A DNA stretch of 46,646 nucleotides from a virus (IMGVR_UViG_3300017446_000004:1-46646), one strand, 5' to 3'; positions 1-39,068 are shown, counted from the first letter of the stretch. The notes: generated by a model not told the origin, from the letters alone. Numbers and translations are program-made.

Positions 1-123
1 ACGCGGTCGCCGAGGGCCTGTTCACGATCAAGGAGCACGACGGCCGGCTGATCGTGTGGCTGGATGACGTGGTGATCCCCGATCGCGGATGGTTCGGGTT
101 CACCAAGCAAGGCGAGTTGCGCT
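1..123. repeat. Terminal overlap copy 1, identical to 46524-46646 (circular closure or terminal redundancy of the contig)
   Basis: Read directly. The window begins acgcggtcgccgagggcctgttcacgatcaagg. The same string restarts at 46524 and runs to the last base. Confidence 0.95.
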
Positions 124-1727
124 ACATCGGCGCGAACTCGGGCCTATCGGGCGAGGCGCTGCCGCCAAACAAGTTCCTGACCATCCGCACGGGCGGCACG
201 CATGACTTTGCGTTCTACGGCATGGGGCTGGCGCATTGGTGCTATTGGCCCATTTTCTTCAAGCGCTCGGCGCTGAAATTCTGGGCGCTGTACCTCGAAA
301 AGCTTGGCCAGCCGACCGTCGCGATCGGCTTTCCCGCCGCAGACAAAGACGACAAGAAGAAGCTCGCCAGCCTGTTGACCACCGCCCAGGCGATCGGCAA
401 GGACTCGGCCGTTCTCGTTCCCGAGGCGTACCTTGCCGAGGAAAAGGTCAAGATTTTCGAGAGCCAGCGCAGCGGGAACAACGTCTCCGGCTACAAAGAT
501 TTCGTCGCCGAGAATAACGAGGCCATCATGCGCGTGGTTCTCGGTCAGCCGGGCACGTCCAAGGGCGTGAGCAGCGGGCTCAACAGCAATCAGGCCAGCG
601 AACACGCGGGGGTCAAGGAGGAAATCGTCAAGGCCGACTCTGACCTGATCACGGACGCGTTTGGCTCAACCTTCGGTGCGTGGATCACGCGATGGAACCA
701 CGGCGAGGACGTAAAGCCCCCGATCGTCCGCCGCATCCTCAAGGCTGGCGAGGATCTCAACGCGGTCGCCGAGCGCGACAGCAAGCTCGACGCCATCGGC
801 ATCCGTCGCAGCGAGGACAGCGTCAAGGCGACCTATGGCGACGGGTACGAGGTTGATCGCGTGTCGGCATCCGAACAGGCCGCGCAGGACAACGCGCTCG
901 CGCTGGCCAAGGCTGCGGCGACGCCGGCAGCGGGTGGCGGGAACGTCGCCGACATCGCGGCGCAGCGTCAAAAGCGGATTGCCGAGTTTGCGGCCCAGGG
1001 CGGCAGTTCTGTTTCGCCGCTGTACGTGTATCGTCCGGTCGCGCCGAAGACCGCGGACAAACTGGTCGCGTTCGCCAAGTCGATCGGCATAACCTCACCG
1101 CTCGCCGCGTCTGACATGCACGTTACCGAGCTATACTCAAAAACGGCCGTGGATTGGTTCGCGATGGCCGGCGAGGGATGGGACAGCGACACGTTGCAAG
1201 TCCAGGCGGGCGGGCCGCGGTTCGTGGAGCGGTTCGGCGACGCGATCGTCCTGCGGTTCGATTCGCCGACCCTGCGCTATCGTCATGCTTCCATGCGCGA
1301 GCGCGGCGCGTCATCCGATCACGATACCTACAATCCGCACGTGACGCTTGGCTACGGCTACCCGGATCTTGACCTTTCCAAGGTCGAGCCGTTCGGCGAG
1401 GAACTCACCTTCGGCCCCGAGATATTCGAGGCGATCAAGCCCGAGGGGTTCGATCCCGCAACGCTCGATTTCACCGCCGAGGACGAGGCCGCGATCGAGC
1501 GCCTCATTGCGGCGTCGGTCAGCAAGGCGTCTCCGCTGTTCGAGGCTATCGGCAACGCCATGCGCGATTCGCTGCAGGGCGTGACAACCGTTGAGGGCGC
1601 GCGCGTTGCCATCCTCTCCGCGGTCGAGCAATTCGACCCCACTGACCTCGCGAAGGCTTTGGCCCTCCCGTTGCTTGCCGAGCGCGCCGCGGCATCTGTC
1701 GGCGCTGATGACGAGGTGGACGCATGA
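3..1727 (+). CDS. Portal protein, DUF935 / Mu gp29-like, C-terminal part. It continues the ORF that starts at 46073; the joined product is about 725 aa.
   Basis: The frame is open from base 3 (AVAEGLFTIKEHDG...), in phase with 46073..46646 through the 123-bp overlap. DUF935-like stretch: FAFYGMGLAHWCYWPIFFKRSALKFWALYLEKLGQPTVAIGFP...AIMRVVLGQ. It lies directly downstream of the large terminase. Confidence 0.9.
   Translation, partial: AVAEGLFTIKEHDGRLIVWLDDVVIPDRGWFGFTKQGELRYIGANSGLSGEALPPNKFLTIRTGGTHDFAFYGMGLAHWCYWPIFFKRSALKFWALYLEKLGQPTVAIGFPAADKDDKKKLASLLTTAQAIGKDSAVLVPEAYLAEEKVKIFESQRSGNNVSGYKDFVAENNEAIMRVVLGQPGTSKGVSSGLNSNQASEHAGVKEEIVKADSDLITDAFGSTFGAWITRWNHGEDVKPPIVRRILKAGEDLNAVAERDSKLDAIGIRRSEDSVKATYGDGYEVDRVSASEQAAQDNALALAKAAATPAAGGGNVADIAAQRQKRIAEFAAQGGSSVSPLYVYRPVAPKTADKLVAFAKSIGITSPLAASDMHVTELYSKTAVDWFAMAGEGWDSDTLQVQAGGPRFVERFGDAIVLRFDSPTLRYRHASMRERGASSDHDTYNPHVTLGYGYPDLDLSKVEPFGEELTFGPEIFEAIKPEGFDPATLDFTAEDEAAIERLIAASVSKASPLFEAIGNAMRDSLQGVTTVEGARVAILSAVEQFDPTDLAKALALPLLAERAAASVGADDEVDA
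1014..1455 (+). other. 2H phosphoesterase-like (LigT / cyclic phosphodiesterase / Acb1-type) domain embedded in the portal ORF
   Basis: Two H-x-T motifs lie 73 codons apart: MHVTE (His codon 1119-1121) and PHVTLGY (His codon 1338-1340). They follow a strand-like LYVYRPV and an Ala-rich linker. Confidence 0.6.
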
Positions 1728-3284: not shown

Positions 3285-4883
3285 ATGCTCAAACGACTTA
3301 TGATCGGGCTCGCGCTTCTATGCGCAGCCACGGGGCCCGCGCTCGCGCAGGACAAGGCGACACTCGACACGCGCGAATTGCTCGCGGCCTCCACTCAACC
3401 GGACGCGGCGATCGCCACCGACTATCGGTCGGGCGCATACGACGATCAGCCAACCTTTGTTCGCGTGCTCAAGGCTTACAAGCGCGTCACGGCCCCGCCG
3501 ATCCCGGTTCGTAAGCCGGTCGGAATGAACCTGTCGGGCTTGTCGTGGTATTCGTCGCGCCAGACGTTCGCGAACCTATTGCAGGGCGGGCAATGGAATA
3601 TCGATTGGAAGGTCATCCCGTCCGACCAACTCGACGCGCTCGGCTATCCGAAGACGTGGCCAGCAACCGGCGAGGTAAAGCGCCTGCTCGGCGCGCCAAC
3701 GGGCGGTTGGGTACGGCAAACAAGCGTGGCCTGTACCTGGGCGGGCTCGGGCGGCGTGAACTATTCGGGTGGCCTCAACGTCGTGAAGGGCGACCATAAG
3801 ATCGCGTTCGACATGCCGTCATGGAACGGCGCGGTCAAAAATACGTGGTTCGGGATTTACGGCGTCAACAACGCCGATCCGTTCCGGGATTTTGAGTGCC
3901 ACGACGCCAACCCGGCGAACGCAACGGGTAATGAGTTCTCCAAGGAGATCATCGCCAGCGCCAGCAAATATCCAGTGCTGCGGTTCATGGATTGGTCGGC
4001 GACCAACTCGAGCCCAGCGATCACCGAAGCCAACCGGCCAAACCCGCGCACGCTCGACAATCCAGGCATGGCGCTTGAGAATCAGATCCGCCTTGCAACG
4101 CTGGCCAATGCGGATTCGTGGATCAACCTGTCATGGAAGGCCGACGCGTCGTATATTCGTTGGGCCGCAAAGCAGGCGCATGACACGATCGCGCCTGGGC
4201 ACAAGGCATACGTCGAGTTGAGCAACGAGGTCTGGAACTATCAATTTTGGCAGGCGCAGGATAACCTTGCCGAAGCCGTCGCGCTCAATATCGACCCGAG
4301 CAACAAATATTATGGCGCGGCCAAAAACTATTCCCGCCGCGCGATCGAGGTTTTTAAGGTCTGGGAAGAGGTCTTCGCCGACCGGCCGGGCGATCTCGTT
4401 CGGGTGCTCGGCACACAGTCGGCAAACTCGGAAATCACCCGGCAGGAAATGAACTATCCGGGGATTGCCGACCATATCGACGCGATCGCGGGGGCCCCGT
4501 ATTTCAACCACGATTACAGCGTCCAGTGGACGCCGGAACTCCTGCGCGCCGGGATCGACAAGACCGTCGCACAGCAAAAGGCAACGTGCGATATCGTGCG
4601 CGTCAAAAAGCCGAAAGCGCTTTGCTACACGTACGAAGCCGGACAACACGAATTGGTAACGGGCGCAATGACCTATGACCAACTTGTCAGCCTCCAGCGA
4701 AGCCCGCTTATGGGCGAACTGTACGGCGAATATCTGACCAAGCTCGCCGCAGTCACGGATCTGACCATGCTGTTCAACGACGTGGACCCGATCACGAAAT
4801 ACGGCGCTTGGGGCCATGCCGAATACGGCGGCCAGACCGACGCGCCGAAGCAAATGGCGGTTGACCGCTACATGGCGCAGTAA
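3285..4883 (+). CDS. Sec-exported glycoside hydrolase-like protein (clan GH-A TIM-barrel type)
   Basis: SD gaaaggga precedes the ATG at 3285. Signal peptide MLKRLMIGLALLCAATGPALA/QD. PVLRFMDWSATN and YVELSNEVWN (Asn-Glu at 4224-4229) resemble the acid/base strand of clan GH-A enzymes. Confidence 0.6.
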   Translation: MLKRLMIGLALLCAATGPALAQDKATLDTRELLAASTQPDAAIATDYRSGAYDDQPTFVRVLKAYKRVTAPPIPVRKPVGMNLSGLSWYSSRQTFANLLQGGQWNIDWKVIPSDQLDALGYPKTWPATGEVKRLLGAPTGGWVRQTSVACTWAGSGGVNYSGGLNVVKGDHKIAFDMPSWNGAVKNTWFGIYGVNNADPFRDFECHDANPANATGNEFSKEIIASASKYPVLRFMDWSATNSSPAITEANRPNPRTLDNPGMALENQIRLATLANADSWINLSWKADASYIRWAAKQAHDTIAPGHKAYVELSNEVWNYQFWQAQDNLAEAVALNIDPSNKYYGAAKNYSRRAIEVFKVWEEVFADRPGDLVRVLGTQSANSEITRQEMNYPGIADHIDAIAGAPYFNHDYSVQWTPELLRAGIDKTVAQQKATCDIVRVKKPKALCYTYEAGQHELVTGAMTYDQLVSLQRSPLMGELYGEYLTKLAAVTDLTMLFNDVDPITKYGAWGHAEYGGQTDAPKQMAVDRYMAQ

Positions 4884-4902: not shown

Positions 4903-4941
4903 GCCGCGGTTAAGGTGGGCATTTCTCACCTTAACCGCGGC
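4903..4941. terminator. Bidirectional terminator hairpin between convergent genes
   Basis: Perfect 15-bp stem gccgcggttaaggtg / caccttaaccgcggc with a 9-nt loop, and a T-rich tract downstream on the + strand. Confidence 0.7.
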
Positions 4942-5299
4942 CGTTGCGCATTTCCTTTTCAGTCAGCACCCGACCAGCCCCAGGCGGCGGCGGGAAGCGC
5001 GGGACATAGCGGGTCATCCCGCCCGGCGCGCGACACGACCAGCAATTCAGAACGTCGGGCGCGGAGTTGAGAATTTCCTCACGCGCGCCGCATGGGCAGG
5101 CGAGGCACACCGTATGTCCCTTCGGATTGGAAGGGACCTCAACCGCCGTGATTGGCGCGGGCGCATATAGCTTCTGTATATTATCAGGCGCGATTGCAGA
5201 TTTGCGCTTGCGCGGGGGCGGCGCGGCCGAGGGCAGTGCGTCGCCGAATAGATCAGCCACGGCCCCCGCACCAGCCTCCACACTCACTGTCGGCGGCAT
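4931..5299 (-). CDS. Zinc-ribbon-like small protein (start uncertain: ATG 5299 or GTG 5260)
   Basis: HTVCLACPCG...(17 aa)...NCWSCRAPG gives CxxC...CxxC. There is a basic PPPRKRKS patch. It is the last gene of the minus-strand cassette. Confidence 0.55.
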   Translation of the reverse strand: MPPTVSVEAGAGAVADLFGDALPSAAPPPRKRKSAIAPDNIQKLYAPAPITAVEVPSNPKGHTVCLACPCGAREEILNSAPDVLNCWSCRAPGGMTRYVPRFPPPPGAGRVLTEKEMRNGRG

Positions 5300-6104
5300 C
5301 GTCTTCCACGTCGCTCATAGGCAGAACTGGATTGTTTTCGACATGATCCCGCAAGTCCGCAACGCTCATATAGCCGAATGAAAAACGACGCTCAGCCTCA
5401 TGGCGGGCCCACCAGTCTAACCCCTCGGGGTTGACCCGAGCGCGAGCAATGCGGCTTTTCTCGCTGACAAACGGGCAATGATCACAATTCCCGGTTCCTC
5501 TAGGCAGCATCAAATCAAAAGGCTGTTGCGTCCAGTATTTCAAAACGTCCTGCTTACGCACACCAGCAGATGCCAACGGAAAACCGAACCTCCGCCCTTC
5601 ATTTAATGCCTTTCTAGGCATTTCATAAACGCGATCATATTCGTCGGCTCTGAAACCAATTGTTTCCTGATAATCCCCTGACGAAAATCCTAGCGTTTCC
5701 ATAAAATCATGCATGACGCCGACTTTACAATGTTGCGTGCACCACCTCCCGCGAAGGGTAGAGAACAACGATTGTTTGCGTTCTATGAGCCTAGACAATG
5801 GCTCTCCATTTCGGCTTGCGCTGTTGTATCCGACTTCCTCAAATCGGCCTGCCGCGCCGACACGACGTAAGTCGGTGACAAACTCGAGCCAACGAACTCG
5901 AACGCCCCAACGGGTCGCGCATTCGTGAACGAAGCGGAGCGTTTCCTCGCGCTCCTTACCCGTGTTCGCAAAACAGACGTGTACGTCGTCGGGCAGCGTG
6001 CCCCCGTGCGCGTCAAGGGTCTGTTTGAGCATATACGCCGACGTTCGCCCTCCCGAAAACGAGATGAGCGCAGGGCCTTCGATGAAATAGGGATTGCCTG
6101 CCAC
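5253..6104 (-). CDS. PAPS reductase / PP-loop ATP-pyrophosphatase family protein
   Basis: PP-loop ISFSGGRTS near the N-terminus. C-terminal Cys motif TGNCDHCPF and terminal CGGWCGG. GTG start at 6104. The gene is conspicuously AT-richer than the rest of the genome. Confidence 0.8.
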   Translation of the reverse strand: MAGNPYFIEGPALISFSGGRTSAYMLKQTLDAHGGTLPDDVHVCFANTGKEREETLRFVHECATRWGVRVRWLEFVTDLRRVGAAGRFEEVGYNSASRNGEPLSRLIERKQSLFSTLRGRWCTQHCKVGVMHDFMETLGFSSGDYQETIGFRADEYDRVYEMPRKALNEGRRFGFPLASAGVRKQDVLKYWTQQPFDLMLPRGTGNCDHCPFVSEKSRIARARVNPEGLDWWARHEAERRFSFGYMSVADLRDHVENNPVLPMSDVEDDAADSECGGWCGGRG

Positions 6105-6106
6105 GA

Positions 6107-6205
6107 TCAGCCCTCGCTCTCAGGCCATATGGTTTCAGCCCAGGCGATCGCCCAGACCGCCGCGCCGAGCAGCGCGACGACGGCCACAGCGCCAATCCAG
6201 ATCAT
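6107..6205 (-). CDS. 32-aa membrane micro-protein (MIWIGAVAVVALLGAAVWAIAWAETIWPESEG)
   Basis: ATGA overlap with the upstream gene and a single hydrophobic helix. Translated by hand; below the track cutoff. Confidence 0.55.
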   Translation of the reverse strand: MIWIGAVAVVALLGAAVWAIAWAETIWPESEG

Positions 6206-6363
6206 TGGTATTCGGTCGCGAGCAGGATCAGGATGGCGACGCCAGCAGCCGCGAGGGCCAAGAGGCTCAAGACCATCTGGCCGAAGCGACCAAGCACAAA
6301 ACGGCGATCGATCCAGAAAACGACAGCGATCGCGACGGCGCAGAGAATGAAGGCAAGAAGCAT
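6202..6363 (-). CDS. 53-aa two-helix membrane protein (MLLAFILCAVAIAVVFWIDRRFVLGRFGQMVLSLLALAAAGVAILILLATEYQ)
   Basis: SD aagga precedes the ATG at 6363. Two hydrophobic helices. Translated by hand. Confidence 0.6.
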   Translation of the reverse strand: MLLAFILCAVAIAVVFWIDRRFVLGRFGQMVLSLLALAAAGVAILILLATEYQ

Positions 6364-6384
6364 GGGGGCGGTTCCTTGTGTCGT

Positions 6385-6534
6385 TTAGCGCAGGAGATTG
6401 CGCAGGAGGCGGCAGGCGTCGTTGCTGATCACCTCGGCAAGCCGCTTGATCGCCTCGCGTTCCTCGGCGGTCTGCGCAACGCTTTGCGTCTGGCGGATCG
6501 CCTCGCGGATCTGATCCTCGGGCGTGCGGATCAT
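6385..6534 (-). CDS. 49-aa hypothetical protein (MIRTPEDQIREAIRQTQSVAQTAEEREAIKRLAEV...)
   Basis: ATGA overlap with the stop of the upstream gene at 6531-6534. It is the in-frame tail of track ORF 6385..6780. Confidence 0.55.
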   Translation of the reverse strand: MIRTPEDQIREAIRQTQSVAQTAEEREAIKRLAEVISNDACRLLRNLLR

Positions 6535-6701
6535 CGGAACACCAGCCCGAGCGCGACGCACGCGCCGAACGCGGCGAGGGGGATGGCCAGCCCGAGGGAG
6601 AACGCTACGGCGACCACCTTGACCGGAGCGGCGAGGATCACGCCGAGCGGCGTTCTGCGCTCGGTCGTGACGGGCGGGCGGTTTCGATAATCCCGGTTCA
6701 C
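6531..6701 (-). CDS. 56-aa membrane protein (…LGVILAAPVKVVAVAFSLGLAIPLAAFGACVALGLVFR)
   Basis: GTGA overlap (GTG 6701-6699, upstream stop 6700-6698). The C-terminal half is hydrophobic. Confidence 0.5.
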   Translation of the reverse strand: MNRDYRNRPPVTTERRTPLGVILAAPVKVVAVAFSLGLAIPLAAFGACVALGLVFR

Positions 6702-6976
6702 AACGCGCGCTGCCGAAAATAGAGCGAGCACGCCAGCTTGAGGCCATCCGCGTTCGGGCCCTTGTAGGCGATGATCGCATCCGCCGCGGTCTGGTCGTCG
6801 CGGGTCAGCGTGTAGCGGTACGCGATCCGGCAAACGTTCGTCCCACTCATTTCGACGAACACGCGGTCGCGCTCGGTCTGGGCAGTGCTGACGAGCGTCG
6901 CATAATTGGCGATCGCGGCGTCAAGGTCGGGCATCGGGGCGGCTGCGCTGGCGAGCGCGAGGGCGGCGAGGATCAT
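6698..6976 (-). CDS. 92-aa exported protein
   Basis: N-terminal signal-like MILAALALASAAAP. ATGA overlap with the upstream gene. Confidence 0.65.
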   Translation of the reverse strand: MILAALALASAAAPMPDLDAAIANYATLVSTAQTERDRVFVEMSGTNVCRIAYRYTLTRDDQTAADAIIAYKGPNADGLKLACSLYFRQRAL

Positions 6977-7149
6977 CGTTTAGCCTTTCTCGGGTTGAGG
7001 TCGATTTCGTGGGGTGCGCCCTTGGCGTCGGCGCGGGCGGCTTCCTGGGCGGCGGCGATCGACGGATGCGGCATGTTGCCCCACTGCCCCGCGCGCGACA
7101 GGTTGATCCGGTCGATCGCCGGGAATGTCTGGATCGTGTAGCGGATCAC
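6973..7149 (-). CDS. 58-aa hypothetical protein
   Basis: GTGA overlap with the upstream 51-aa ORF (GTG 7149-7147, stop 7148-7146). In frame with track ORF 6973..7185. Confidence 0.5.
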   Translation of the reverse strand: MIRYTIQTFPAIDRINLSRAGQWGNMPHPSIAAAQEAARADAKGAPHEIDLNPRKAKR

Positions 7150-7301
7150 TTGCCGACCTGCTCGAGCAATGCGGCGGTCTGGCACATGCCTGCGGCGATC
7201 GCGTGCTCGCGGCGGGCCTCGTCAACCATGCCCGCGCCGCGCAGGGCGTGCGCCCGGTTGCAGTGCTTGGCGGCGGCTTGGCGAAGTTGAAAGCTCGACA
7301 T
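7146..7301 (-). CDS. 51-aa hypothetical protein (MSSFQLRQAAAKHCNRAHALRGAGMVDEARREHAIAAGMCQTAALLEQVGK)
   Basis: SD gagg lies 6 nt upstream of the ATG at 7301. High GC3. Translated by hand. Confidence 0.55.
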   Translation of the reverse strand: MSSFQLRQAAAKHCNRAHALRGAGMVDEARREHAIAAGMCQTAALLEQVGK

Positions 7302-7359
7302 GGGGAACCTCGTTGCGTTTGTGGTGCAATCCGTATCGCACCAGGGAATTAAAGAAGCG

Positions 7360-7629
7360 TTACCAAGGCGTACCCGGATAGACCCGATCCTTGTAATATT
7401 CGCGACCGTAGCGCTGTTGCCAGTACGCGGCGCGGATCAGCGCTTTCTTGCGTTCGTAATACGCGGCGGCACGCTCGACCGGACCCCAATCGTTATTGAG
7501 CGCCCTCTCCGGCCGCGTGAACATGTGGCAAATCTTGGCGGCTGCGGTACGGCAAAGCCGATCCTCGATCTTGAGCATGTCAACGCTGTTGAGGTTACGA
7601 ACTGCGCGCTTCTGTTGGACGAGGGCCAT
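7360..7629 (-). CDS. 89-aa hypothetical protein, first gene of the minus-strand cassette
   Basis: SD aggag precedes the internal ATG (MALVQQKRAV...) of track ORF 7360..7713. Confidence 0.65.
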   Translation of the reverse strand: MALVQQKRAVRNLNSVDMLKIEDRLCRTAAAKICHMFTRPERALNNDWGPVERAAAYYERKKALIRAAYWQQRYGREYYKDRVYPGTPW

Positions 7630-7691
7630 TGTGTTTGCTCCTGTATGAGCGCCTCCGCGCCCTGCGATTCGTGCAATATCACATAGCGCGG

Positions 7692-7715
7692 GCATTGCAA
7701 GCGAATTGCGCAAGG
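7692..7715. promoter_or_regulatory. Candidate operator pair in the divergent control region: GCATTGCAA + ATTGCGCAAG
   Basis: The palindromic cores TTGCAA and TTGCGCAA are 5 nt apart. The same 9-mer and 10-mer recur at 33786-33803 in the other divergent intergenic region. Confidence 0.5.
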
Positions 7716-7769
7716 GGTGGCCCCGCGTTCAGGCTTACGCGCGCGATAGGGCGTCGGTAAATTCTGCGC

Positions 7770-8759
7770 ATGGAACATGATGTCGAAATCGAAGTTTTCC
7801 GCGCCGACACTCGGGCGAGCCGTGGGATCACCGCCGAGCATATCGCCGAGGTTGCGGCGTTCGATTGCGACGCGCACCCGATCCCCAACGTTCTCGGGCA
7901 CCCGGCCGGCGACAAGCCCGCCCACGGCCAAGTGAAGAAATTCCGCGCCGAGGGCTCCACCCTGTTCGCCACCGTGCCCGCCACGGCCGTCAAAATCTGG
8001 GAAGGCATCAAAAAGGGCGAGATCCTCAATCGATCGATGGCGTTTTTCGACCCCAGCCACGAAGCGAACCCGACGCCGGGCAAGTGGGCCCCGCGTCACC
8101 TCGGTTGGCTTGGCGCTTCTGCCCCAGGCATCCCCGGCATGACGCCGCTTTCCCAAGTCGCGAAGGGCCTGGCCTTTTCCGCAGACGGTGAAACGGTGGA
8201 CGTGCTAGGACCGCCTGCCGATGCGGTGGTTTACGCCCCGCCCGCAACAACCGTTTTCACCGTCCACGACGACCCCAAGGAGCCTACCCCAATGGAACGC
8301 ACCCCCGAGCAGATCGCAGCCGACGAACAGCGCGCCCGCGAGTTCACCGCACGCGAGGACGCGATCGCCGCGCGCGAGGAAGCCGCAGCCAAGCGCATCC
8401 GCAGCCAGTTCGAGGCGAGCAACAGCGCCGCGATCGACGGGCTCGTTCGCGAGGGCAAGATCCTGCCCGCCGAGGTCGCCGACCTCAAGACCGCGTTCAA
8501 CGCGCTCGACCCGGAAGCCGAGGAACTGACCTTCGGCGCTGGCGACAAGGCCGTCACCTCGACCGCGGCGTCGCGCATCCTCACGTTCATGGCGTCGGCC
8601 CTGTCCAAGCGCGTACCGCTCGGCGAGCGCGATTCCCCAGCCGGCGAGCCGGGCGAGCGCGAGTTCGCCAGCCCCGCCGAGTTCCGCGCCGCTGCGCACG
8701 CGATGGCCAAGGATGAGGGCATCACGTTCGAGGCCGCAACCGAGAAACTGGCGGGCTGA
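7770..8759 (+). CDS. Capsid maturation protease / scaffolding protein (P2 gpO / Mu gpI-like)
   Basis: The N-terminus (GITAEHIAEVAAFDCD...VLGHP...HGQVKKFRAEGSTLFATV...NRSMAFFDP...HLGWLGASAPGIPGM) resembles the gpO-type serine peptidase. The C-terminal half is Ala/Glu-rich coiled coil. It lies upstream of the decoration and capsid genes. Confidence 0.7.
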   Translation: MEHDVEIEVFRADTRASRGITAEHIAEVAAFDCDAHPIPNVLGHPAGDKPAHGQVKKFRAEGSTLFATVPATAVKIWEGIKKGEILNRSMAFFDPSHEANPTPGKWAPRHLGWLGASAPGIPGMTPLSQVAKGLAFSADGETVDVLGPPADAVVYAPPATTVFTVHDDPKEPTPMERTPEQIAADEQRAREFTAREDAIAAREEAAAKRIRSQFEASNSAAIDGLVREGKILPAEVADLKTAFNALDPEAEELTFGAGDKAVTSTAASRILTFMASALSKRVPLGERDSPAGEPGEREFASPAEFRAAAHAMAKDEGITFEAATEKLAG

Positions 8760-8818
8760 TCCGCAACGGGGTTCCCTGACGGGGGCCCCTCCACTTTCAA
8801 GCTAAGGGAGCCCCTGTC

Positions 8819-9187
8819 ATGGGTCGCACTACCAACGGACTGATCAAGAGCCGCAACGCCGTCGCTGCCATCGCAGGAATGCGGCTGATCACCGAGGGCG
8901 CAGTCGATGGCGCTTGCGCGCTGGCGGTTGACGCAACGAAGAACATCATCGGCGTTTCGTCCGAACTGGACACGATCGCAGGCGAACGCGTCAGCGTGAT
9001 CATGGTCGGCAACATTTGCCCGGTCGTCTATGGCGGAACCGTCACTCGCGGCGACGCGCTCACCGCCGACGCTCAGGGCCGCGCGATCACCACCACCACG
9101 ACCGGCGCGCGCATCGGCGGCACGGCTGAAATCTCGGGCGTGCTCGGCGATATCGGCTCGATCGTCGTCAATCCCGGCATCCTCTAA
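8819..9187 (+). CDS. DUF2190-family head decoration-like protein
   Basis: 122 aa with a GDALTADAQGRA...GGTAEISGVLGDIGSIVVN pattern. SD gggag. It sits immediately before the capsid gene, as is usual for this family. Confidence 0.7.
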   Translation: MGRTTNGLIKSRNAVAAIAGMRLITEGAVDGACALAVDATKNIIGVSSELDTIAGERVSVIMVGNICPVVYGGTVTRGDALTADAQGRAITTTTTGARIGGTAEISGVLGDIGSIVVNPGIL

Positions 9188-9223
9188 ACCCCGCACCCCT
9201 CAACTTTATAAGGACCTGACACG

Positions 9224-10219
9224 ATGGCCCGCGCCAATTTCCCACTGATCTCCGTGCCGCTCTCGGGCGTCGTGATCGACTATGCCGGCATCAACCGCGA
9301 CACGCGCGGCTACATCGCCGACCGCGTTGCACCCGTCAAAAAGGTGACTTCGCAGCTTTTCCGTTGGTATTCGTCGCGCATCAACGAGGCATTCACCCTC
9401 TATGATACGCAGATCGACCGCCTCGGGCAGGCAAACGAAATGCTGCACAACTGGGACCTGCAGACGGACGTGACCAAGGATTACGCGATCCGCGAGCCGG
9501 TCGCGTATGCCGACGAAAAGGAAGCGAACGCCCAGGGCATTCCGTTCTCGTTGCGCGCTGCGGCCGCAAAGAACGTGGTCGATCAGATCCAGCTCAACCG
9601 CGAACTGCGCGTCGCCACCCTGACCAACTCGGCGTCGTCGTACCTCGCGGCCTATGTCGTGGACAAGACGGCCGCCAAGTGGTCGGATTTCGCGAACAGC
9701 GACCCGGTTGCCGACGTTCGCGACGCGCAGTCGAAGATGCTCGTTCGTCCAAACGTGGGCGTTTGCTCGCGCCGGGTGGCGGACATTCTCGAGCGGCATC
9801 CGAAGATCGCCGCGGCGCTCGGCGGTTCGCTGCAGAGCGGTCAGTATAACGACATGGCGCGCGTCGCTCGGCTGTTCAATCTGCGCGAGATCATCGTCGG
9901 TGACACGCTTTACCAGACCAGCAAGCCGGGGCAGACGCTCGCAACCGGCAACATCTGGGCCGACAATTTCGCCATGCACTTCCAGGGCGCGACCACGGCG
10001 GACACGACCGTTTCGGCGAACAACAACAACAGCCGGTCGCCCGACTTCCTGACCACGTTCCAGTGGGGCGATTGGGTATCGTCGGAAAAGGAGTTCCTGC
10101 CCGGCGACATGGGCCTCCTGGGCGGGATCAAGGTCCTCGCCGGGCAGAGCGTCCTCGAGCGGCAGGTCGCACCCTATGCGGGCTTCCTGTTCCAGAACGT
10201 CACCAACCCCGCCGCGTAA
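9224..10219 (+). CDS. Major capsid protein
   Basis: 331 aa with SD aagga, in the scaffold-decoration-capsid order. The sequence style (YADEKEANAQGIPFSL...QIQLNRELRVATL) is typical of capsid proteins paired with DUF2190. Confidence 0.8.
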   Translation: MARANFPLISVPLSGVVIDYAGINRDTRGYIADRVAPVKKVTSQLFRWYSSRINEAFTLYDTQIDRLGQANEMLHNWDLQTDVTKDYAIREPVAYADEKEANAQGIPFSLRAAAAKNVVDQIQLNRELRVATLTNSASSYLAAYVVDKTAAKWSDFANSDPVADVRDAQSKMLVRPNVGVCSRRVADILERHPKIAAALGGSLQSGQYNDMARVARLFNLREIIVGDTLYQTSKPGQTLATGNIWADNFAMHFQGATTADTTVSANNNNSRSPDFLTTFQWGDWVSSEKEFLPGDMGLLGGIKVLAGQSVLERQVAPYAGFLFQNVTNPAA

Positions 10220-10282
10220 CGCGGGTTCTACCGGAGCGGGGGCTATGTCCCCGCCGAGGATAGGACCAAGGAGCAAGACGAC

Positions 10283-11849: not shown

Positions 11850-12356
11850 ATGGCCTATCTGACAACCGACGAATACGTCACCCGCTTTGGGGCTCGGGAA
11901 ACCGGGCTCCTGACCAATACCGACGCGGCGCAGGGGGCGGGGCAGGCGTCCTATGACGCCGCCAAGGTCGAGACGGCGCTACAGGATGCGACAGACGAGA
12001 TCGAGGGCTATGTCTCGCGCCGCTATGCCGTCCCCCTCGAATCGCCGCCCACGATCGTCAAGGGATGGGTCGCGGCGATCGCGCGCCTCAAGCTCGCCGA
12101 GGCAACGGGACGCGTGGCCGACGCGATCCAGGCGGCAGCGGATCGCGTTACCCGCCAGCTTGAGCAACTCGCCGCGTCCAAGCTCGACTTGCCGATCGAG
12201 CCGGGACAGCCCGCCTTGCCCGAGAACGACGCGGGCTCGCCGATGACCTCGAACGATCGCGATTGCCCGACGTTCACCCGCTGCGCGATGGACGATTTCA
12301 CCTCGCCGTTCACAATGGGCGGATGCGATAGCGTGCCGAACTGGCGGCGTGGCTGA
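11850..12356 (+). CDS. Head-tail adaptor, DUF1320 / Mu gp36-like
   Basis: MAYLTTDEYVTRFG...ALQDATDEIEGYVSRRYAVPL matches the DUF1320 N-terminal pattern. SD aggaag. Confidence 0.75.
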   Translation: MAYLTTDEYVTRFGARETGLLTNTDAAQGAGQASYDAAKVETALQDATDEIEGYVSRRYAVPLESPPTIVKGWVAAIARLKLAEATGRVADAIQAAADRVTRQLEQLAASKLDLPIEPGQPALPENDAGSPMTSNDRDCPTFTRCAMDDFTSPFTMGGCDSVPNWRRG

Positions 12357-12940
12357 TGGCCCGCGGCGGGTTTTCCACGACGATCGAATATGAAGGCGGC
12401 GGGCTAAATGAAGCCCTGGCCGGGCTGCGCAACTTTCGCCGCCTGGGGAACGATCTCACGCCGTTCATGGAAGACGCCGCGGCGATCCTGCTCTCGTCAA
12501 CCTTGCTGCGGTTCAACTCGGGCCGCGGCCCCAACGATATCCCGTGGGCACCGACCAAGCGCCAGAATACCAGCGCGGTCGGCAAGCGCGGCCCGAACAA
12601 AGCCGGCATTCTGGTCGATACGGGCGATCTGCGCGCCTCGATCCGCGCCGAGACGACGAACAATAGCGTTGAGGTCGGTTCGGACGGCCTGACCGATCCG
12701 GTCAAGGCGATCGCAAACCAATTCGGCTCGCATCGGCAGGCCGTCGTGCTGCGGCACAAGCGCACGATCACGATGGCTTTTGGCGCGCCTCTCGCCGAGC
12801 CTGTTACCGTGGAGGTCCGCCCGCATGGTCGGATCACGAACCTCCCGGCACGCCCCTTTATCGGGATCGACGCGCGCGACGAGACGAATATCAAAGAGGC
12901 TTGGCAGGCCCGCATCATTCGCACCTTTGAGAGCGCCTAG
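12356..12940 (+). CDS. Virion morphogenesis protein, Mu gpG / P2 gpS-like
   Basis: ILVDTGDLRASI...VEVGSD...LPARPFIGI are hallmark stretches of this family. TGATG junction with the upstream gene. Confidence 0.75.
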   Translation: MARGGFSTTIEYEGGGLNEALAGLRNFRRLGNDLTPFMEDAAAILLSSTLLRFNSGRGPNDIPWAPTKRQNTSAVGKRGPNKAGILVDTGDLRASIRAETTNNSVEVGSDGLTDPVKAIANQFGSHRQAVVLRHKRTITMAFGAPLAEPVTVEVRPHGRITNLPARPFIGIDARDETNIKEAWQARIIRTFESA

Positions 12941-27689: not shown

Positions 27690-28031
27690 ATGTCCACCCC
27701 CGACACAGAACCAACGCCGATCGTTTTTGACGACAGCATGACGACCGCGCAGATCCGGCAATTCCTTTCCGCAACGGCGTTTGTCGTTACCTCGATTCCC
27801 GTGTTCGCCGCCCTGTTCAGCAGGCGCGACATTGTGGGGATTGTCGATCTGCTCAAGAGCGAGCCCGCGCTCCAAGCTATCGGCGTTCTCAGCGCCTTCG
27901 CACTTCTGGTCTATCGTCAATGGGCAACCCGCCGCCGCGTCGCCAAGGGCACGGTGATCGCTGCCGCGTCGCCGGTCGCCGTGCTCAAGAGCGAGGTCGC
28001 GGGCTCGCCTACGCCGAGTGCCGAATCGTGA
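27690..28031 (+). CDS. Holin candidate (two transmembrane helices)
   Basis: 113 aa. Helices FLSATAFVVTSIPVFAALFS and AIGVLSAFALLVYRQW. GTGA coupling to the endolysin. Confidence 0.6.
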   Translation: MSTPDTEPTPIVFDDSMTTAQIRQFLSATAFVVTSIPVFAALFSRRDIVGIVDLLKSEPALQAIGVLSAFALLVYRQWATRRRVAKGTVIAAASPVAVLKSEVAGSPTPSAES

Positions 28032-28567
28032 CGGTCGATGACGTGCTCGATGACGTGCTCGCTAAGGAAGGCGGATACGTCAACGACCCGTTGGACGCGG
28101 GCGGCGAGACAAACCACGGCATCACGATCGCGACGGCGCGCGCCAACGGGTACAAGGGGCCAATGCGCGACATGCCGCAGTCGGTTGCCCGCGACATCCT
28201 GTTCCGCCGCTATGTCGTCGCGCCCGGCTTCGACAAGGTTGCCGTGATATCCGCAAAGATCGCCGCCGAGTTGGTGGATACGGGCGTCAACATGGGGCCC
28301 GATACCGCGGGCAAGATCCTGCAGCGCTGCCTTAACTCGCTCAACAACAACGGCAGGGATTTCGCCGTGCTCGACGTTGACGGCGATGTCGGCAAGGCCA
28401 GCCGGGCGGCGCTCAAGGTGTTTCTGGCGCGCCGCGGCGACCTGGGCGAGGCGCGCCTCCTTGTCCTGCTCAACGCGTTGCAGGGCGAGCGCTATGTCTC
28501 ACTGACCGAGACGCGCGCCGCGAACAAAGCCTTTATGTTCGGATGGCTCGCGCGGATCATGCCGTAA
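28028..28567 (+). CDS. Endolysin, glycoside hydrolase family 108 N-acetylmuramidase with a C-terminal peptidoglycan-binding domain
   Basis: LAKEGGYVNDPLDAGGETNHGIT is the GH108 signature. The C-terminal LDVDGDVGKASRAAL...FMFGWLARI resembles the associated PG-binding domain. GTG start at 28028 inside track ORF 27920..28567. Confidence 0.85.
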   Translation: MTVDDVLDDVLAKEGGYVNDPLDAGGETNHGITIATARANGYKGPMRDMPQSVARDILFRRYVVAPGFDKVAVISAKIAAELVDTGVNMGPDTAGKILQRCLNSLNNNGRDFAVLDVDGDVGKASRAALKVFLARRGDLGEARLLVLLNALQGERYVSLTETRAANKAFMFGWLARIMP

Positions 28568-28646: not shown

Positions 28647-29090
28647 ATGCGAATATTTCACGGAATGGGGCTGGCGCTAGTCGCCGCGTGCTCCCTCTCA
28701 CTCGCCGCCTGCGAAATGGGCGCGACGCGGCCCGCCACAGGCGTTCCCGTGCCAATCGGGCAGGTTGCCACCACCGCCGACGCGCTCGGCGTCCCTGCCC
28801 CGGCTGCGGCGGCAAATTCCACCGTTTTGGACGAGGCTCTCGCCCTCAAGGTGGAAGCCGCATACAAAGCATCCCGATCTGCGATGGAACTGGCGGTCGA
28901 CTCTGGCCGGCTGCGCGGGGCCAATGCCACAACGGCCGCGGCGATCGACAACCGGATTTATGCGGGGGTGCAGGCCACCCGCGCGGCGTATCGCGCCGGC
29001 AATGCGGATCGGTACACGACCGCCGCAGCGGAGGCGCTCAACGCGGTCGGCGACTTGCTGATCGCAGTCGGTAAGGGGGCGGGCAAATGA
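28647..29090 (+). CDS. Lipoprotein (o-spanin or exclusion-type function possible)
   Basis: SD aagga. Lipobox LSLAA/C in MRIFHGMGLALVAACSLSLAACEM. The mature part is Ala-rich and helical. Confidence 0.7.
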   Translation: MRIFHGMGLALVAACSLSLAACEMGATRPATGVPVPIGQVATTADALGVPAPAAAANSTVLDEALALKVEAAYKASRSAMELAVDSGRLRGANATTAAAIDNRIYAGVQATRAAYRAGNADRYTTAAAEALNAVGDLLIAVGKGAGK

Positions 29091-33760: not shown

Positions 33761-33805
33761 TTGATGGCATCAACCGTGTAAGAGGATTGCGCAAGCATTG
33801 CAACG
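33761..33805. promoter_or_regulatory. Early divergent control region: palindrome TTGATGgCATCAA plus ATTGCGCAAG / GCATTGCAA operator-like pair
   Basis: 6+1+6 perfect palindrome at 33761-33773. The 10-mer at 33786-33795 and the 9-mer at 33795-33803 are identical to 7705-7714 and 7692-7700. Confidence 0.5.
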
Positions 33806-36255: not shown

Positions 36256-36405
36256 ATGTCTATGTATGACCCCGGCAACCCCCAACACCTTGACCACCTC
36301 CACCGCCACAAGGCGGCATGGACGCCCGAGCGCGAGGCCGCGCTACAGGCGCAGTTTAAGGCCGAAGGCAAAGGCCGCTACGCGAAGGCCGCACCATGCG
36401 CGTAG
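36256..36405 (+). CDS. 49-aa hypothetical protein (MSMYDPGNPQHLDHLHRHKAAWTPEREAALQAQF...)
   Basis: SD from repeat copy 2. Its end overlaps the rusA start. Confidence 0.55.
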   Translation: MSMYDPGNPQHLDHLHRHKAAWTPEREAALQAQFKAEGKGRYAKAAPCA

Positions 36406-36866
36406 CGTTCACGATACCGGGCCCGCCGCAGGGCAAGCGCCGCCCACGAACCCGCGTGGTCGGTCGCATTGCCACCATCTACAGCGATCCGGCCGACAAA
36501 CTGCGCGAGATCGAGATCCGCGCCGCCGTGCGCTTGGCCATGAACGGGCAACAGGCGATCGCCGGCGCGGTGCGCGTCACGATCGACGCCGTGTTCGAGG
36601 TGACGCCAAGTTGGCCGAAAAAACGCAAGGAGGCCGCGCTCGCCGCCCTCTATCACACCAGCAAGCCCGATGCCGACAACATCGCAAAAAGCATTCTCGA
36701 CGGGCTCAACCCCGATCCCAAGGCGAAAGAGGAATGGGCGCGCGTCCCCTTCTGTCTCAACGACGACGGACAGGTCGCCGAGCAGATGATCCGCAAGCGC
36801 TACGGCTCGCCCGCGCGAACCGAGGTGATCGTCCAGGCGATAGCCCCGCCCGAGCCTGCGGGATGA
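36396..36866 (+). CDS. rusA: RusA-family Holliday junction resolvase
   Basis: FTIPGPPQGKRRPR...HTSKPDADNIAKSILDGLN...NDDGQV are the RusA hallmarks. Confidence 0.85.
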   Translation: MRVAFTIPGPPQGKRRPRTRVVGRIATIYSDPADKLREIEIRAAVRLAMNGQQAIAGAVRVTIDAVFEVTPSWPKKRKEAALAALYHTSKPDADNIAKSILDGLNPDPKAKEEWARVPFCLNDDGQVAEQMIRKRYGSPARTEVIVQAIAPPEPAG

Positions 36867-37076: not shown

Positions 37077-37298
37077 ATGATCTCAGGACCAATAGAGCGG
37101 GGCATCCCCCTGCCGCAAAAGACCAGGGGCCGGCCGGTCCTTTACAAGATCGAGGACATGGGCGTCGGGGATAGCCGCTATTTCGCAGCACCCTATGCGA
37201 CCGTCCGATCGGCGATCTGGGCTCGATCGCGCAAGCTCGGGTACAGCATGACATGCGCGCCCGATGGCGACGGCTCGCGCGTCTGGCGGGTCAAGTAG
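37077..37298 (+). CDS. 73-aa hypothetical protein
   Basis: SD aagga lies 7 nt before the ATG at 37077. Internal to track ORF 37041..37298. Confidence 0.6.
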   Translation: MISGPIERGIPLPQKTRGRPVLYKIEDMGVGDSRYFAAPYATVRSAIWARSRKLGYSMTCAPDGDGSRVWRVK

Positions 37299-37299
37299 C

Positions 37300-38100
37300 A
37301 TGGCCGAATTTCCCGCCCTCCCGCTCTGGACCGACGCCTATCTCGGCGACACGACGCATTTGGACGCGACCGAACACGGCGCGTATCTCCTGCTCCTTAT
37401 CGTGTCATGGCGCACGACCGACACGTCGCTCCCGGATGACGACGCATTGCTCGCCAAATATGCCCGCTGCACCCCGAAAGTATGGCGGCGCGTCCGCCCG
37501 GTTCTCGAGCCGTTTTTCGAGCGCGATGGAAAAAAATGGATACAGTTGAGACTCCGCGGAGAGAAGCAATATGTTTCCGCGCGTCGTGACAGTGCGGCAG
37601 CGAATGGGCGAGCTAGTGCATTGAAAAGAAAGGAACGACACGCAACGAAGCGACCAACGGAGCGTGAACAAAGCGACCAACAAACCGTCAACGAAACGCC
37701 GACTCCCACACCCACACCCACACCCAGTAGTAATATTGATGTTCCACCAATATTACCGCGCAAGCGCTCAAAGCCTGAATTGGCCATGCCCGAGGGGGTC
37801 GAAAAATCGGTTTGGGATGACGTGAACGAACTGCGGAAAAAGAAGGGCGCGCCGTTCACGCAAACCGCGCTCAACGCGATCGAGCGGGAGGCCAAGGCGG
37901 CAGGGTGGACGCTCAACAACGCATTGGCCGAAATGTGCAATCGCGGATGGCAGGGCTTCAAAGCCGATTGGGTACAGGACCGAGGAGGAAACAATGGACA
38001 GCGCAGGAACGGCAATGGCTCGGGTGGTGGATCAGGCAACGGGTTCCGGGACGCGATCAGAGAGGCGGGAGATTTCTTCGGCACAGACGACCCGTATTGA
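37300..38100 (+). CDS. DUF1376 (YdaU-like) replication-associated protein
   Basis: FPALPLWTDAYLGDTTHLDATEHGAYLLLLIVSWR is the DUF1376 signature. It has a TPTPTPTPTP linker and a Gly/Asn-rich tail. Confidence 0.75.
   Translation: MAEFPALPLWTDAYLGDTTHLDATEHGAYLLLLIVSWRTTDTSLPDDDALLAKYARCTPKVWRRVRPVLEPFFERDGKKWIQLRLRGEKQYVSARRDSAAANGRASALKRKERHATKRPTEREQSDQQTVNETPTPTPTPTPSSNIDVPPILPRKRSKPELAMPEGVEKSVWDDVNELRKKKGAPFTQTALNAIEREAKAAGWTLNNALAEMCNRGWQGFKADWVQDRGGNNGQRRNGNGSGGGSGNGFRDAIREAGDFFGTDDPY
37649..37755. other. Candidate replication origin patch inside the DUF1376 gene
   Basis: Direct repeats AGCGACCAAC at 37649 and 37672, a cacaccc x3 microsatellite, and an AT-only inverted repeat taatattg / caatatta (37731-37755), all in a locally AT-richer stretch. 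Confidence 0.35.
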
Positions 38101-38706: not shown

Positions 38707-39068
38707 ACCTGATTGAGGACAAGATCGGCGAGGAACACGCCCGCGCGCTCTCTGCTCTGGTCGGGGGCACACAGATCACCGTGCCCGACAATCTCACCGC
38801 ATCCGTGTTCAACTCGGGACGCCTGCGCGAGCGGATTGGCGATGGATTGTTCGCCTTGCTGGTCTTCCACTTCGGCGGCACTCGCCTCTACGTGCCGCAG
38901 CTTGCCCAGGATCGCCGCACTGGACAGGAGCGGGTTGATCCCAAGGCGGTTGAGCGTCTGACCCGGCGCGGGTGGTCTGCGGCGCGCATTGCCCGCAAGC
39001 TCGGCTGTTCGACCCGGACGGTTTACAAGCGTCGCGCGCAAACCTCTTGCAATGCTGGCGCTACCTGA
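38703..39068 (+). CDS. Mor/C-family-like transcriptional activator
   Basis: FHFGGTRLYVPQL plus the C-terminal HTH GWSAARIARKLGCSTRTVYKRR parallel Mu Mor (HLGGGQVYIPRG ... VYKAIRR). Confidence 0.55.
   Translation: MNLIEDKIGEEHARALSALVGGTQITVPDNLTASVFNSGRLRERIGDGLFALLVFHFGGTRLYVPQLAQDRRTGQERVDPKAVERLTRRGWSAARIARKLGCSTRTVYKRRAQTSCNAGAT

Follow-up and report, generated by a model that had tools for sequence, protein, structure and literature searches.

A probable mosaic accessory operon with a NinC-family enzyme gene at the MuF to protease/scaffold junction of a temperate phage genome

Introduction

Two of the closest described systems set the background for the locus considered here. In the Pseudomonas Mu-like phages of the JBD30/D3112 group, the anti-CRISPR (acr) genes occupy the gap that separates gene G from the protease/scaffold gene, and this stretch downstream of MuF/G holds variable strings of tiny open reading frames (ORFs) that have a promoter of their own (PMC3993853). 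In phage lambda, the nonessential ninC gene encodes a protein of the phosphoadenosine phosphosulfate (PAPS) reductase family (PMC10695390). The present analysis concerns a block of ten minus-strand genes, here called the cassette, at positions 4931-7629 of the viral sequence IMGVR_UViG_3300017446_000004:1-46646; the window denotes that whole stretch of DNA, 46,646 nucleotides (nt) in length.

A sequence-only reading of the window had described the cassette as an accessory island in a structural operon, perhaps joining a nucleic-acid- or nucleotide-modifying enzyme to a small membrane complex, and as a combination matching no recognised system. The last of these statements has to be given up, as the enzyme is of the lambda NinC family and the site corresponds to the G to protease/scaffold hot spot (PMC3993853). 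The island itself is supported: it is absent from a prophage with the same order of head genes (L045), its content varies over three related lineages, and it has a promoter-like element and a terminator hairpin of its own. We consider it probable that the block is a mosaic accessory ("moron") operon at the MuF to protease/scaffold junction of a Mu-type head module.

Results

A conserved backbone, variable leaders and a cargo slot

Related phages are represented by five contigs found in IMG/VR with the protease/scaffold protein (L034-L038) and one found in a metagenome scan with an alignment of the 92-amino-acid (aa) cassette protein (L079). Their head proteins are 57-77% identical to those of the window, and in each of them a cassette on the minus strand lies just ahead of the protease/scaffold gene and diverges from it. 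The arrangement seen in the window is kept in part: five genes recur in the same order, encoding the 58-, 92-, 56- and 49-aa proteins and the core of a zinc (Zn) ribbon, and the PAPS-reductase-like gene and the 53-, 32-, 89- and 51-aa ORFs are absent. Identity to the relatives' homologues is 55% for the 58-aa, 47% for the 92-aa and 38% for the 56-aa protein; the 49-aa protein is 31% identical over its full length to a 49-aa protein in the same position, and the Zn-ribbon core, and the core only, is 51% identical to a 69-aa protein closing the relatives' cassettes. Where the window has the 53- and 32-aa ORFs and the enzyme gene, after the 49-aa gene and before the Zn ribbon, L034, L036 and L037 have nothing and L035 has a Cys/His-rich ORF of 115-147 aa.

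An exhaustive HMMER search of 1.84 billion representative proteins returned only three clusters of the 92-aa family. Through one of these a third lineage was reached (L084), with a divergent cassette of more than 4.8 kilobases (kb) and at least 18 genes. Of the window's genes it shares only the trio encoding the 58-, 92- and 56-aa proteins, and it carries an RNase H gene (Pfam, 32.5 bits). Over all three lineages, identity ranges over 45-55% for the 58-aa protein (L034-L038, L079 and L084), 45-55% for the 92-aa protein and 33-38% for the 56-aa protein. By these protein alignments the block is therefore a mosaic: the ORFan backbone is conserved, the leader genes are specific to the lineage, and a slot takes up cargo. 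Five of the ten ORFs are thus backed by protein conservation across lineages (58, 92, 56 and 49 aa and the Zn-ribbon core), and the 89-, 51-, 53- and 32-aa ORFs rest on composition and gene calls. Scans of IMG/VR returned no relatives of the 89-aa and 53-aa proteins; the 51-aa and 32-aa ORFs have none in the related cassettes compared, nor has the 32-aa ORF any near the homologues of the enzyme; and the nine small proteins, concatenated, gave no tblastn match in the cultured-phage collection.

Some hits and calls were set aside. The 92-aa protein also matched a 1,644-aa repeat protein (P0124) in 13 short stretches, in what looks like an artefact of composition. Two calls made by eye, of an ASCH-like protein (L084) and of an HNH nuclease (L035), were not confirmed by Pfam and are not claimed. 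In L084, the cassette occupies 5418-10250 and runs off the end of the contig, so the count of at least 18 co-oriented small genes, several of them Cys-rich, is a minimum. In L036, the MuF homologue matches in two pieces, 482-991 and 1919-2221, about 0.9 kb apart, which suggests an internal insertion or a split gene.

The enzyme belongs to the NinC family

The 283-aa protein of the cassette matches phrog_424 ("phosphoadenosine phosphosulfate reductase") with E = 4.7e-45 over residues 4-279; the match covers positions 155-410 of the 460-position profile, the first ~150 positions of which have no counterpart. The protein collection contains more than 7,797 of its homologues, some bearing the name "Nin-like protein", and 435 cultured-phage records match it in tblastn, many annotated as NinC and including Shiga toxin (Stx)-converting, chi-like and lambdoid phages. 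By profile and annotation alike, the enzyme is a member of the lambda NinC family, phrog_424. The SGGxxS PP-loop is intact, with S17, G18, G19 and S22 invariant among 24 homologues, and the same alignment has six invariant cysteines (C62, C122, C207, C210, C275 and C279). In the C-terminal tail, DSECGGWCGG, the invariant C275 is preceded by D or E and is not followed by L/I-H. The AlphaFold2 (AF2) model has an overall predicted local distance difference test score (pLDDT) of 81; the tail, with C275 and C279, scores low and is presumably flexible.

What the family does is less plainly written in its matches. The Pfam profile PAPS_reduct (PF01507) scores 20.6 bits against a gathering cut-off of 22.5 bits and covers residues 13-71 only, and a sequence search of the PDB gave no significant match for either the protein or the family profile. 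Foldseek places the model about equally close to CysH (6vpu, 1sur), to adenosine phosphosulfate (APS) reductases (2goy, 7lhr, 4bwv) and to the [4Fe-4S] proteins LarE, NcsA and TtuA, at E ~1e-4; the template-modelling scores (TM-scores) normalised by the query are ~0.3-0.45 overall and 0.38-0.43 for 6vpu, 1sur and 2goy, and those normalised by the target are 0.48-0.54. These matches of the model support an adenine-nucleotide alpha-hydrolase fold, and among viral structure models the enzyme matches proteins labelled PAPS reductase. The analogy with DndC and with BrxP of type 4 bacteriophage exclusion (BREX), drawn in the sequence-only reading, turned out to be weak: in PADLOC, SspD matches part of the protein (2.7e-9, residues 14-193, profile positions 4-153 of 277), BrxP, whose profile has 779 positions to the 283 aa here, matches no more than residues 13-68 (E = 0.031), and DndC does not match. 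Taken together, the enzyme is most likely of the ATP-pyrophosphatase type, with a cysteine cluster that is probably iron-sulfur (Fe-S), and acts on a nucleic acid or nucleotide; that it is a CysH of sulfate assimilation is unlikely. Separately, the sole weak PDB match of the family profile, to chain C of 21fy, "PptA" (270 aa), lies in the PP-loop region (E = 0.035), and a literature search on it was uninformative.

Several observations bear on where the gene came from. Its local GC content is 0.41-0.62, against 0.64 for the genome, and when the window was aligned by blastn with six loci carrying homologues, homology was confined to the ORF (query 604-1438; ORF 597-1448). The foreign composition, the arrest of DNA homology at the ends of the ORF and the absence of the gene from related cassettes together argue for recent acquisition of a single gene, and by these measures the enzyme gene is a recent, horizontally acquired piece of cargo in the slot.

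No sign of a tie between the enzyme and the small proteins

The neighbourhoods of PAPS-reductase homologues, which the sequence-only reading had proposed to compare, gave no evidence of coupling: the other nine proteins of the cassette occurred in 0 of 31 IMG/VR loci with homologues of 38-73% identity, and none of the small proteins lay near three closer homologues (78-80% identity; L085, L086 and L088). The homologues elsewhere, in 37 other loci, occupy early, replication or recombination regions, and in none of these do they adjoin a small protein of the cassette. That of L085 is surrounded by small ORFs, after which come RusA, DnaA_C and HNH genes, that of L088 stands opposite a NinB-SSB-RecT operon, and that of L003 lies between an upstream RusA and a downstream terminase gene. 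None of the ORFs preceding the homologues is hydrophobic, and the idea that the 53- and 32-aa ORFs arrived together with the NinC-type gene found no support, there being neither homology in the flanking DNA nor transmembrane (TM) ORFs upstream of the close homologues. Coupling of the enzyme to a membrane complex is thus unsupported on several sides: all the related cassettes lack the gene, its GC is foreign, its homology ends with the ORF, and the small proteins are absent elsewhere.

One neighbourhood deserves separate mention. In L086 (3533-6858), just after the integrase, the homologue (79% identity) overlaps by 4 nt with the end of a gene for an 823-aa C5 DNA methylase. This coupling hints that the family works on DNA; no C5 DNA methylase lies beside the other 33 homologues examined.

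Anatomy of the cassette

The basic description of the block held up well. All ten minus-strand ORFs are found with the expected lengths (89, 51, 58, 92, 56, 49, 53, 32, 283 and 122 aa), and so are the five 4-nt overlaps (GTGA at 7149/7146, ATGA at 6976/6973, GTGA at 6701/6698, and ATGA at 6534/6531 and 6205/6202), the hairpin, whose perfect 15-nt arms (4903-4917 and 4927-4941) enclose a 9-nt loop, the divergent spacer of 140 nt and the motifs SFSGGRTS, NCDHC and CGGWCGG of the 283-aa protein. Base composition by codon position fits coding on the minus strand, with GC higher at the first position than at the second (GC1 > GC2) and third-position GC (GC3) of 0.71-0.86 in the small ORFs.

Other statements required correction. 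Of the two flanking genes named, the one on the protease/scaffold side was right, and MuF is not adjacent, since a plus-strand gene of 532-549 aa (3234/3285-4883) intervenes. Gene callers were expected to miss most of the ORFs; all ten are in the public calls on two identical contigs (ENA ERZ27250342 k141_364151 and Logan SRR6987777_249). The last gene does encode a cysteine-rich Zn ribbon, but only the C-terminal ~59 of its 122 aa are conserved, and the conserved cysteines form CxC...CxxC in place of CxxC...CxxC. The signal peptide assigned to the 92-aa protein is plausible as a prediction, the N-terminus being hydrophobic over ~12 residues but lacking a basic n-region. By Kyte-Doolittle hydropathy, the two TM segments of the 53-aa and the one of the 32-aa protein are retained, and the 56-aa protein, credited with one, would have one or two, as two hydrophobic 19-residue windows fall within residues ~19-54.

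The overlaps had been taken to imply tight stoichiometric co-translation, which reads too much into a very common type of junction: the gene list of the genome has such overlaps at 4 of ~20 further same-strand junctions, and they are therefore not peculiar to the block. A recognisable Shine-Dalgarno sequence precedes the 89-, 51-, 92- and 53-aa ORFs and the enzyme gene. Since the genes without one begin inside 4-nt overlaps, ordinary coupling by termination and reinitiation would fit.

The Zn-ribbon gene calls for a closer look at its start. The called 122-aa ORF reaches 5299 and overlaps the NinC-like gene by 47 nt, the extension is not conserved, and its GC3 of 0.63 is below the 0.74 of the core; the GTG at 5110, which matches the start in the relatives, is the likely initiation codon. 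If so, a non-coding stretch of 142 nt (5111-5252) lies behind the NinC-like gene. It includes an AT-rich patch, TATAGCTTCTGTATATTATCAGG, at about 5166-5190, and may be an insertion scar or an internal regulatory site.

At the far end of the cassette, the hairpin folds with -45.5 kcal/mol (z = -7.4) on the plus strand and -42.9 kcal/mol (z = -4.4) on the minus strand. A U-rich tail follows it on the plus strand only, and a terminator scan flagged only an adjacent short stem, 4936-4948, with a T-rich tail, again on the plus strand.

A putative promoter class

The divergent spacer contains a promoter-like element directed into the cassette (Table 1). Two blocks of the spacer are kept in related phages, one with TTGCAA and one of the form CGCGCGCG..GGTAAAT. 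In the genome, the pattern TTGCAA-N15-18-TAT occurs four times against 0.29 expected, and a 16-nt motif, GCGCAAnnCnCTT(G/A)CA, also occurs four times, against 0.19 expected; the motif was derived from these same sites, with the copy at 41985-42000 not used in its definition. The copy in front of the cassette and that at 39047 (39.0 kb) are identical at 32 of 40 nt. Each copy of the motif comes with a pair of elements resembling -35 and -10 boxes and lies 45-60 nt upstream of the Shine-Dalgarno sequence and start of the first gene in a gene string, and one copy precedes a leftward operon of phrog_1376, RecE-like exonuclease and Erf genes. The motif is probably a promoter class of the phage itself. 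As it is shared with the start of that operon, the cassette would be an autonomous unit and not part of the late head transcript, and the pattern suggests a promoter of the recombination-operon class. A generic scan for consensus promoters did not flag the cassette promoter.

The junction and its other cargo

In Mu-type prophages that are more distantly related, MuF and the protease gene are from ~0.1 kb to ~2.8 kb apart. L045, a prophage from a Sphingomonas metagenome-assembled genome, has the two genes side by side and no insert; in most of the other Mu-type prophages compared, the gap holds a gpG-like gene on the plus strand, and in L052 it holds an inverted 314-aa gene. This variable gap, together with the anti-CRISPR locus of the Pseudomonas Mu-like phages, makes the junction a known hot spot for cargo. 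Replacement of Mu gene G by the cassette was considered and rejected, as a gene of the gpG family sits downstream of the capsid gene.

In the window, the junction holds two convergent cargo units with a common hairpin, the cassette and a glycosidase-like gene. The secreted 532-aa product of the latter has no match in Pfam or PHROGs. It contains conserved ELSNEVWN and YEAGQH motifs, and Foldseek aligns its AF2 model (pLDDT 88) with the glycoside hydrolase (GH) families GH51, GH79 and GH39, all of clan GH-A. Its homologues are cargo genes in unrelated Sphingomonas prophages, where they stand beside Acyl_transf_3 (O-acyltransferase), GH30 and BrnT/BrnA genes. Judging from the modelled fold and these surroundings, it is likely a moron active in lysogenic conversion or on polysaccharide.

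The small proteins of the cassette gave little to searches. The 49-aa protein has only sub-threshold hints in Pfam (CcdA, 0.06), the family profiles of the 58-aa protein, the 92-aa protein and the Zn ribbon have no meaningful relative in the PDB, and no helix-turn-helix (HTH) family of the Aca type was detected among the cassette proteins, the conserved last gene encoding a Zn ribbon instead. A role as a lysis cassette was rejected, since the endolysin module is 20 kb away.

Genome, host and layout of the window

The window is a complete, circularly permuted genome of a temperate phage, ~46.6 kb long and with 64% GC. The portal gene is followed by MuF, protease/scaffold, cement protein, major capsid protein and tail genes. 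Several proteins have close homologues in Sphingomonas, Sphingosinicella, Novosphingobium and Blastomonas genomes, which makes a sphingomonad the likely kind of host; from these homologies we would say that the phage probably infects one. A scan of the whole window with Rfam at gathering thresholds returned no matches.

The portal protein has a feature of its own. Its C-terminus (1017-1439, plus strand) contains an Acb1 phosphodiesterase domain (PF23474, 116 bits against a cut-off of 27 bits), which counters the cyclic-oligonucleotide-based antiphage signalling system (CBASS). By tblastn, the same domain occurs under the annotation "portal protein" in cultured phages of Synechococcus, Pseudomonas (phiPSA1 group) and Rhizobium (RHEph04 group), and its presence in portal-annotated proteins of cultured phages from several hosts marks the fusion as recurrent. 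A literature search found no paper discussing it. The fusion argues that the phage invests in counter-defence.

Table 1. Coordinates of the cassette, its putative signals and other features of the window
Feature	Position	Strand	Remarks
Zn-ribbon core, ~59 aa, CxC...CxxC, conserved last gene	4931-5110	-	GTG at 5110 preceded by AAGGGA
283-aa NinC-family PP-loop enzyme gene	5253-6104	-	phrog_424; 2-nt gap after 32-aa ORF
Putative 32-aa ORF, one predicted TM segment, cargo slot, this phage only	6107-6205	-	ATGA overlap
Putative 53-aa ORF, two predicted TM segments, cargo slot, this phage only	6202-6363	-	AAGGAA upstream; GC3 0.72
49-aa helical backbone protein	6385-6534	-	ATGA overlap; homologue in the L034-L038/L079 lineage
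56-aa backbone protein, C-terminal hydrophobic stretch	6531-6701	-	GTGA overlap; homologues in three lineages
92-aa backbone protein, two invariant Cys, possibly exported	6698-6976	-	ATGA overlap; homologues in three lineages
58-aa backbone protein	6973-7149	-	GTGA overlap; homologues in three lineages
51-aa ORF, lineage-specific ORFan, predicted helical and soluble	7146-7301	-	GAGG upstream; GC3 0.85
89-aa ORF, first cassette gene, lineage-specific ORFan	7360-7629	-	ATG with AGGAG 9 nt upstream; GC by codon position 0.61/0.44/0.71
Divergent intergenic region between first cassette gene (leftward) and protease/scaffold gene (rightward)	7630-7769
Promoter-like element into the cassette	7673-7711	-	GCGCAATTCGCTTGCA 7711-7696; -35-like TTGCAA 7700-7695; 16-nt spacer ending TGA; -10-like TATTGC 7678-7673
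16-nt motif, four sites	7696-7711, 33777-33792, 39036-39051, 41985-42000	-, -, +, +
Hairpin, 15-bp stem, between convergent glycosidase-like gene and cassette	4903-4941		Includes the Zn-ribbon stop codon
Secreted glycoside-hydrolase-like protein, 532 aa, signal-peptide-like N-terminus	3285-4883	+	Clan GH-A-like fold
Portal gene, spanning the contig ends	about 46073-46646 plus 1-1727	+	Portal_Mu 2.7e-50
gpG-family gene (Pfam Phage_tail_S), downstream of capsid gene	corresponds to 12356-12940
Endolysin	27920-28567		phrog_315, 2.6e-38
147-aa ORF after endolysin	28647-29090		N-terminus lipoprotein-like by eye
Erf-like annealing protein and RecE-like exonuclease	29.7-32.2 kb	-
RusA resolvase	36396-36866
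Primosomal/O-like replication protein	37264-38100
Small and large terminase genes	43.8-46.1 kb

Discussion

The analysis establishes the anatomy of the block, its mosaicism, the family membership of its enzyme, the foreign composition of the enzyme gene and the conserved position at the head-gene junction, and it is on these that our reading of the cassette as a mosaic accessory operon is built. The operon would have three layers. A backbone of ORFans (58, 92, 56 and 49 aa), with the ~59-aa Zn ribbon as its last gene, would be the stable part; the 89- and 51-aa leader genes would be specific to the lineage; and the 53- and 32-aa ORFs and the NinC-type enzyme would fill a slot separating the Zn ribbon from the 49-aa gene. 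Leftward transcription of the operon would begin at a sigma-70-like promoter of its own within the 140-nt spacer, the genes lacking a Shine-Dalgarno sequence would be translated through termination and reinitiation at the ATGA and GTGA overlaps, and transcription would stop at the hairpin that the cassette has in common with the convergent glycosidase-like cargo gene. The enzyme would be independent cargo and not a subunit of a membrane complex. Such an island would be dispensable for assembly of the head and would serve the interaction of phage and host, with counter-defence, exclusion and conversion as possible roles. Going further, one may picture the ORFan backbone, its 3' end anchored by the Zn ribbon, as a new counter-defence or superinfection-exclusion operon occupying the niche of the anti-CRISPR locus in sphingomonad phages with Mu-type heads, under a recombination-class promoter, with a slot that recruits nucleic-acid enzymes and the like (NinC, RNase H, the Cys/His-rich ORF) and a NinC that modifies phage or host nucleic acid against restriction; this bolder picture is speculative, and we regard it as rather unlikely.

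The interpretation of the whole block as one integrated system, in which a PP-loop enzyme modifying nucleic acid is stoichiometrically coupled to a small membrane complex, seems to us very improbable. It draws on the co-orientation and tight packing of the ten genes with their five 4-nt overlaps, on three products predicted to be membrane proteins, on the mere 2 nt that separate the enzyme gene from the 32-aa TM ORF and on the SspD match in PADLOC. Overlaps of this kind are common elsewhere in the genome, however, and related cassettes keep the backbone while all of them lack the enzyme gene; the small proteins are absent from the 31 viral loci and from the three loci of close homologues, the GC of the gene is foreign, DNA homology stops at the boundaries of its ORF, and the two adjoining TM ORFs have no relatives anywhere searched. 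A morphogenetic role for the small proteins is unlikely too, and we give little credence to the notion that the backbone is no cargo at all but a module for head morphogenesis or late regulation, providing for example assembly chaperones or a Zn-finger late activator. Small Zn-finger late activators do exist in other phages. In three lineages, with head genes 45-77% identical, the backbone always stands immediately upstream of the protease/scaffold gene, and two of the three still have the Zn ribbon as their last gene. Against this, the cassette is encoded on the strand opposite that of every head gene, with a promoter-like element of the recombination-operon class, the backbone is missing from L045 with its same order of head genes, and it is less conserved (31-55%) than the head proteins (57-77%); predicted membrane or exported products would be odd for capsid assembly, and Pfam gave no match to Ogr/Delta or any other regulator family.

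The remaining alternative concerns the enzyme only and would make the 283-aa gene an auxiliary metabolic gene (AMG), a PAPS/APS reductase of the CysH type that boosts sulfate assimilation by the host. This we judge improbable, even though phage PAPS reductases are treated as AMGs in the literature (PMC13369170). CysH and APS reductases are among the best Foldseek matches, and the flexible tail with its invariant (D/E)-C recalls the ECGLH tail of CysH. We also take the layout C122 ... C207xxC210 to resemble the Fe-S site of APS reductases. Yet the Pfam score is below the gathering cut-off and its coverage partial, the PDB holds no sequence match, the TM-scores are only 0.4-0.5, and the sulfur transferases LarE, NcsA and TtuA fit equally well; the intact SGGxxS PP-loop is typical of ATP pyrophosphatases, the homologues are found among genes of DNA replication, recombination and methylation and not among sulfur genes, and lambda can dispense with ninC.

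Our preferred reading of the cassette as an accessory operon has points against it as well. The motif behind the promoter class was partly defined post hoc from the very sites that it describes, and in the 21-kb L035 locus the 16-nt motif is absent and only the TTGCAA block is conserved. The small proteins gave nothing significant in Pfam, PHROGs, NCBIfam or PADLOC. The 53-aa, 32-aa and NinC-like genes are tightly packed, with a 4-nt overlap followed by the 2-nt gap, and could have been co-opted locally to work together. The retention of the backbone beside head genes in three lineages is compatible with a morphogenetic or regulatory role, and the CysH-like flexible C-terminal tail of the enzyme, with its invariant (D/E)-C, with sulfonucleotide chemistry. 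Finally, the related cassettes come from few samples, and the five IMG/VR contigs are close to one another.

If the accessory-operon reading is true, the MuF to protease/scaffold junction acts as a cargo hot spot well beyond Pseudomonas, and the conserved small ORFans at the junction are reasonable candidates for anti-defence and exclusion screens. The 283-aa gene is another phage "PAPS reductase" that speaks against routine annotation as a sulfur AMG in virome studies: homologues among DNA-metabolism genes, an intact PP-loop and, here, a life as single-gene cargo all argue against the label. The enzyme family, the moron concept and the hot spot have been described before, and current understanding is not overturned; what interest remains lies in the ORFan backbone, found in a phage that also fuses an anti-CBASS Acb1 domain to its portal.

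Comparison with known systems

A lysis cassette of holin and spanin genes would differ in that the small TM proteins here are not beside the endolysin. CysH and the APS reductases provide the best structural matches (6vpu, 2goy and 1sur) and a similarly flexible Cys tail, but the Pfam score is below gathering, the tail reads (D/E)CxxWC where CysH has ECGLH, the SGGxxS loop is intact and the gene context is related to DNA. With DndC, SspD and BrxP the enzyme has in common the superfamily fold, the PP-loop, cysteines compatible with an Fe-S cluster and the partial SspD match. It differs from the first two in its company, as no cysteine desulfurase, DndB/D/E or SspA/B/C is found among the ten cassette proteins (Pfam, NCBIfam and PADLOC, the last run on the cassette proteins only), and from BrxP of type 4 BREX in that the 283-aa protein is without the extra domains described for BrxP (PMC12839542).

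With lambda NinC the enzyme shares membership of phrog_424 and the PP-loop, and the ~290 aa of the lambda protein are similar in size to the 283 aa here; the lambda gene is nonessential. The difference is one of place, since the window gene lies in a head-module cassette, whereas homologues elsewhere lie in the nin or early region near RusA, NinB, RecT and SSB (L003, L085 and L088). That location is a positional habit of the NinC family and not a requirement for membership. With morons and the lambdoid nin region, the cassette has in common a putative promoter and terminator of its own inside a conserved module, atypical composition, variable presence and an assortment of nucleic-acid enzymes (NinC here, RNase H in L084) together with the Cys/His-rich ORF of L035. 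It is unusually long for an insertion in a head module (ten genes here, at least 18 in L084), and it has a conserved ORFan backbone where wholly interchangeable cargo might be expected.

The acr-aca locus of the Pseudomonas Mu-like phages differs in several respects: the cassette diverges from the head genes, whereas acr genes are co-directional with them; neither an Aca-type HTH gene nor any Pfam or PHROG similarity to anti-CRISPR families was detected in it; and three of its products are membrane proteins, as far as can be told from sequence. The two nevertheless occupy the same niche, the cassette ending 140 nt from the start of the protease/scaffold gene, and in both the content is mosaic between related phages.

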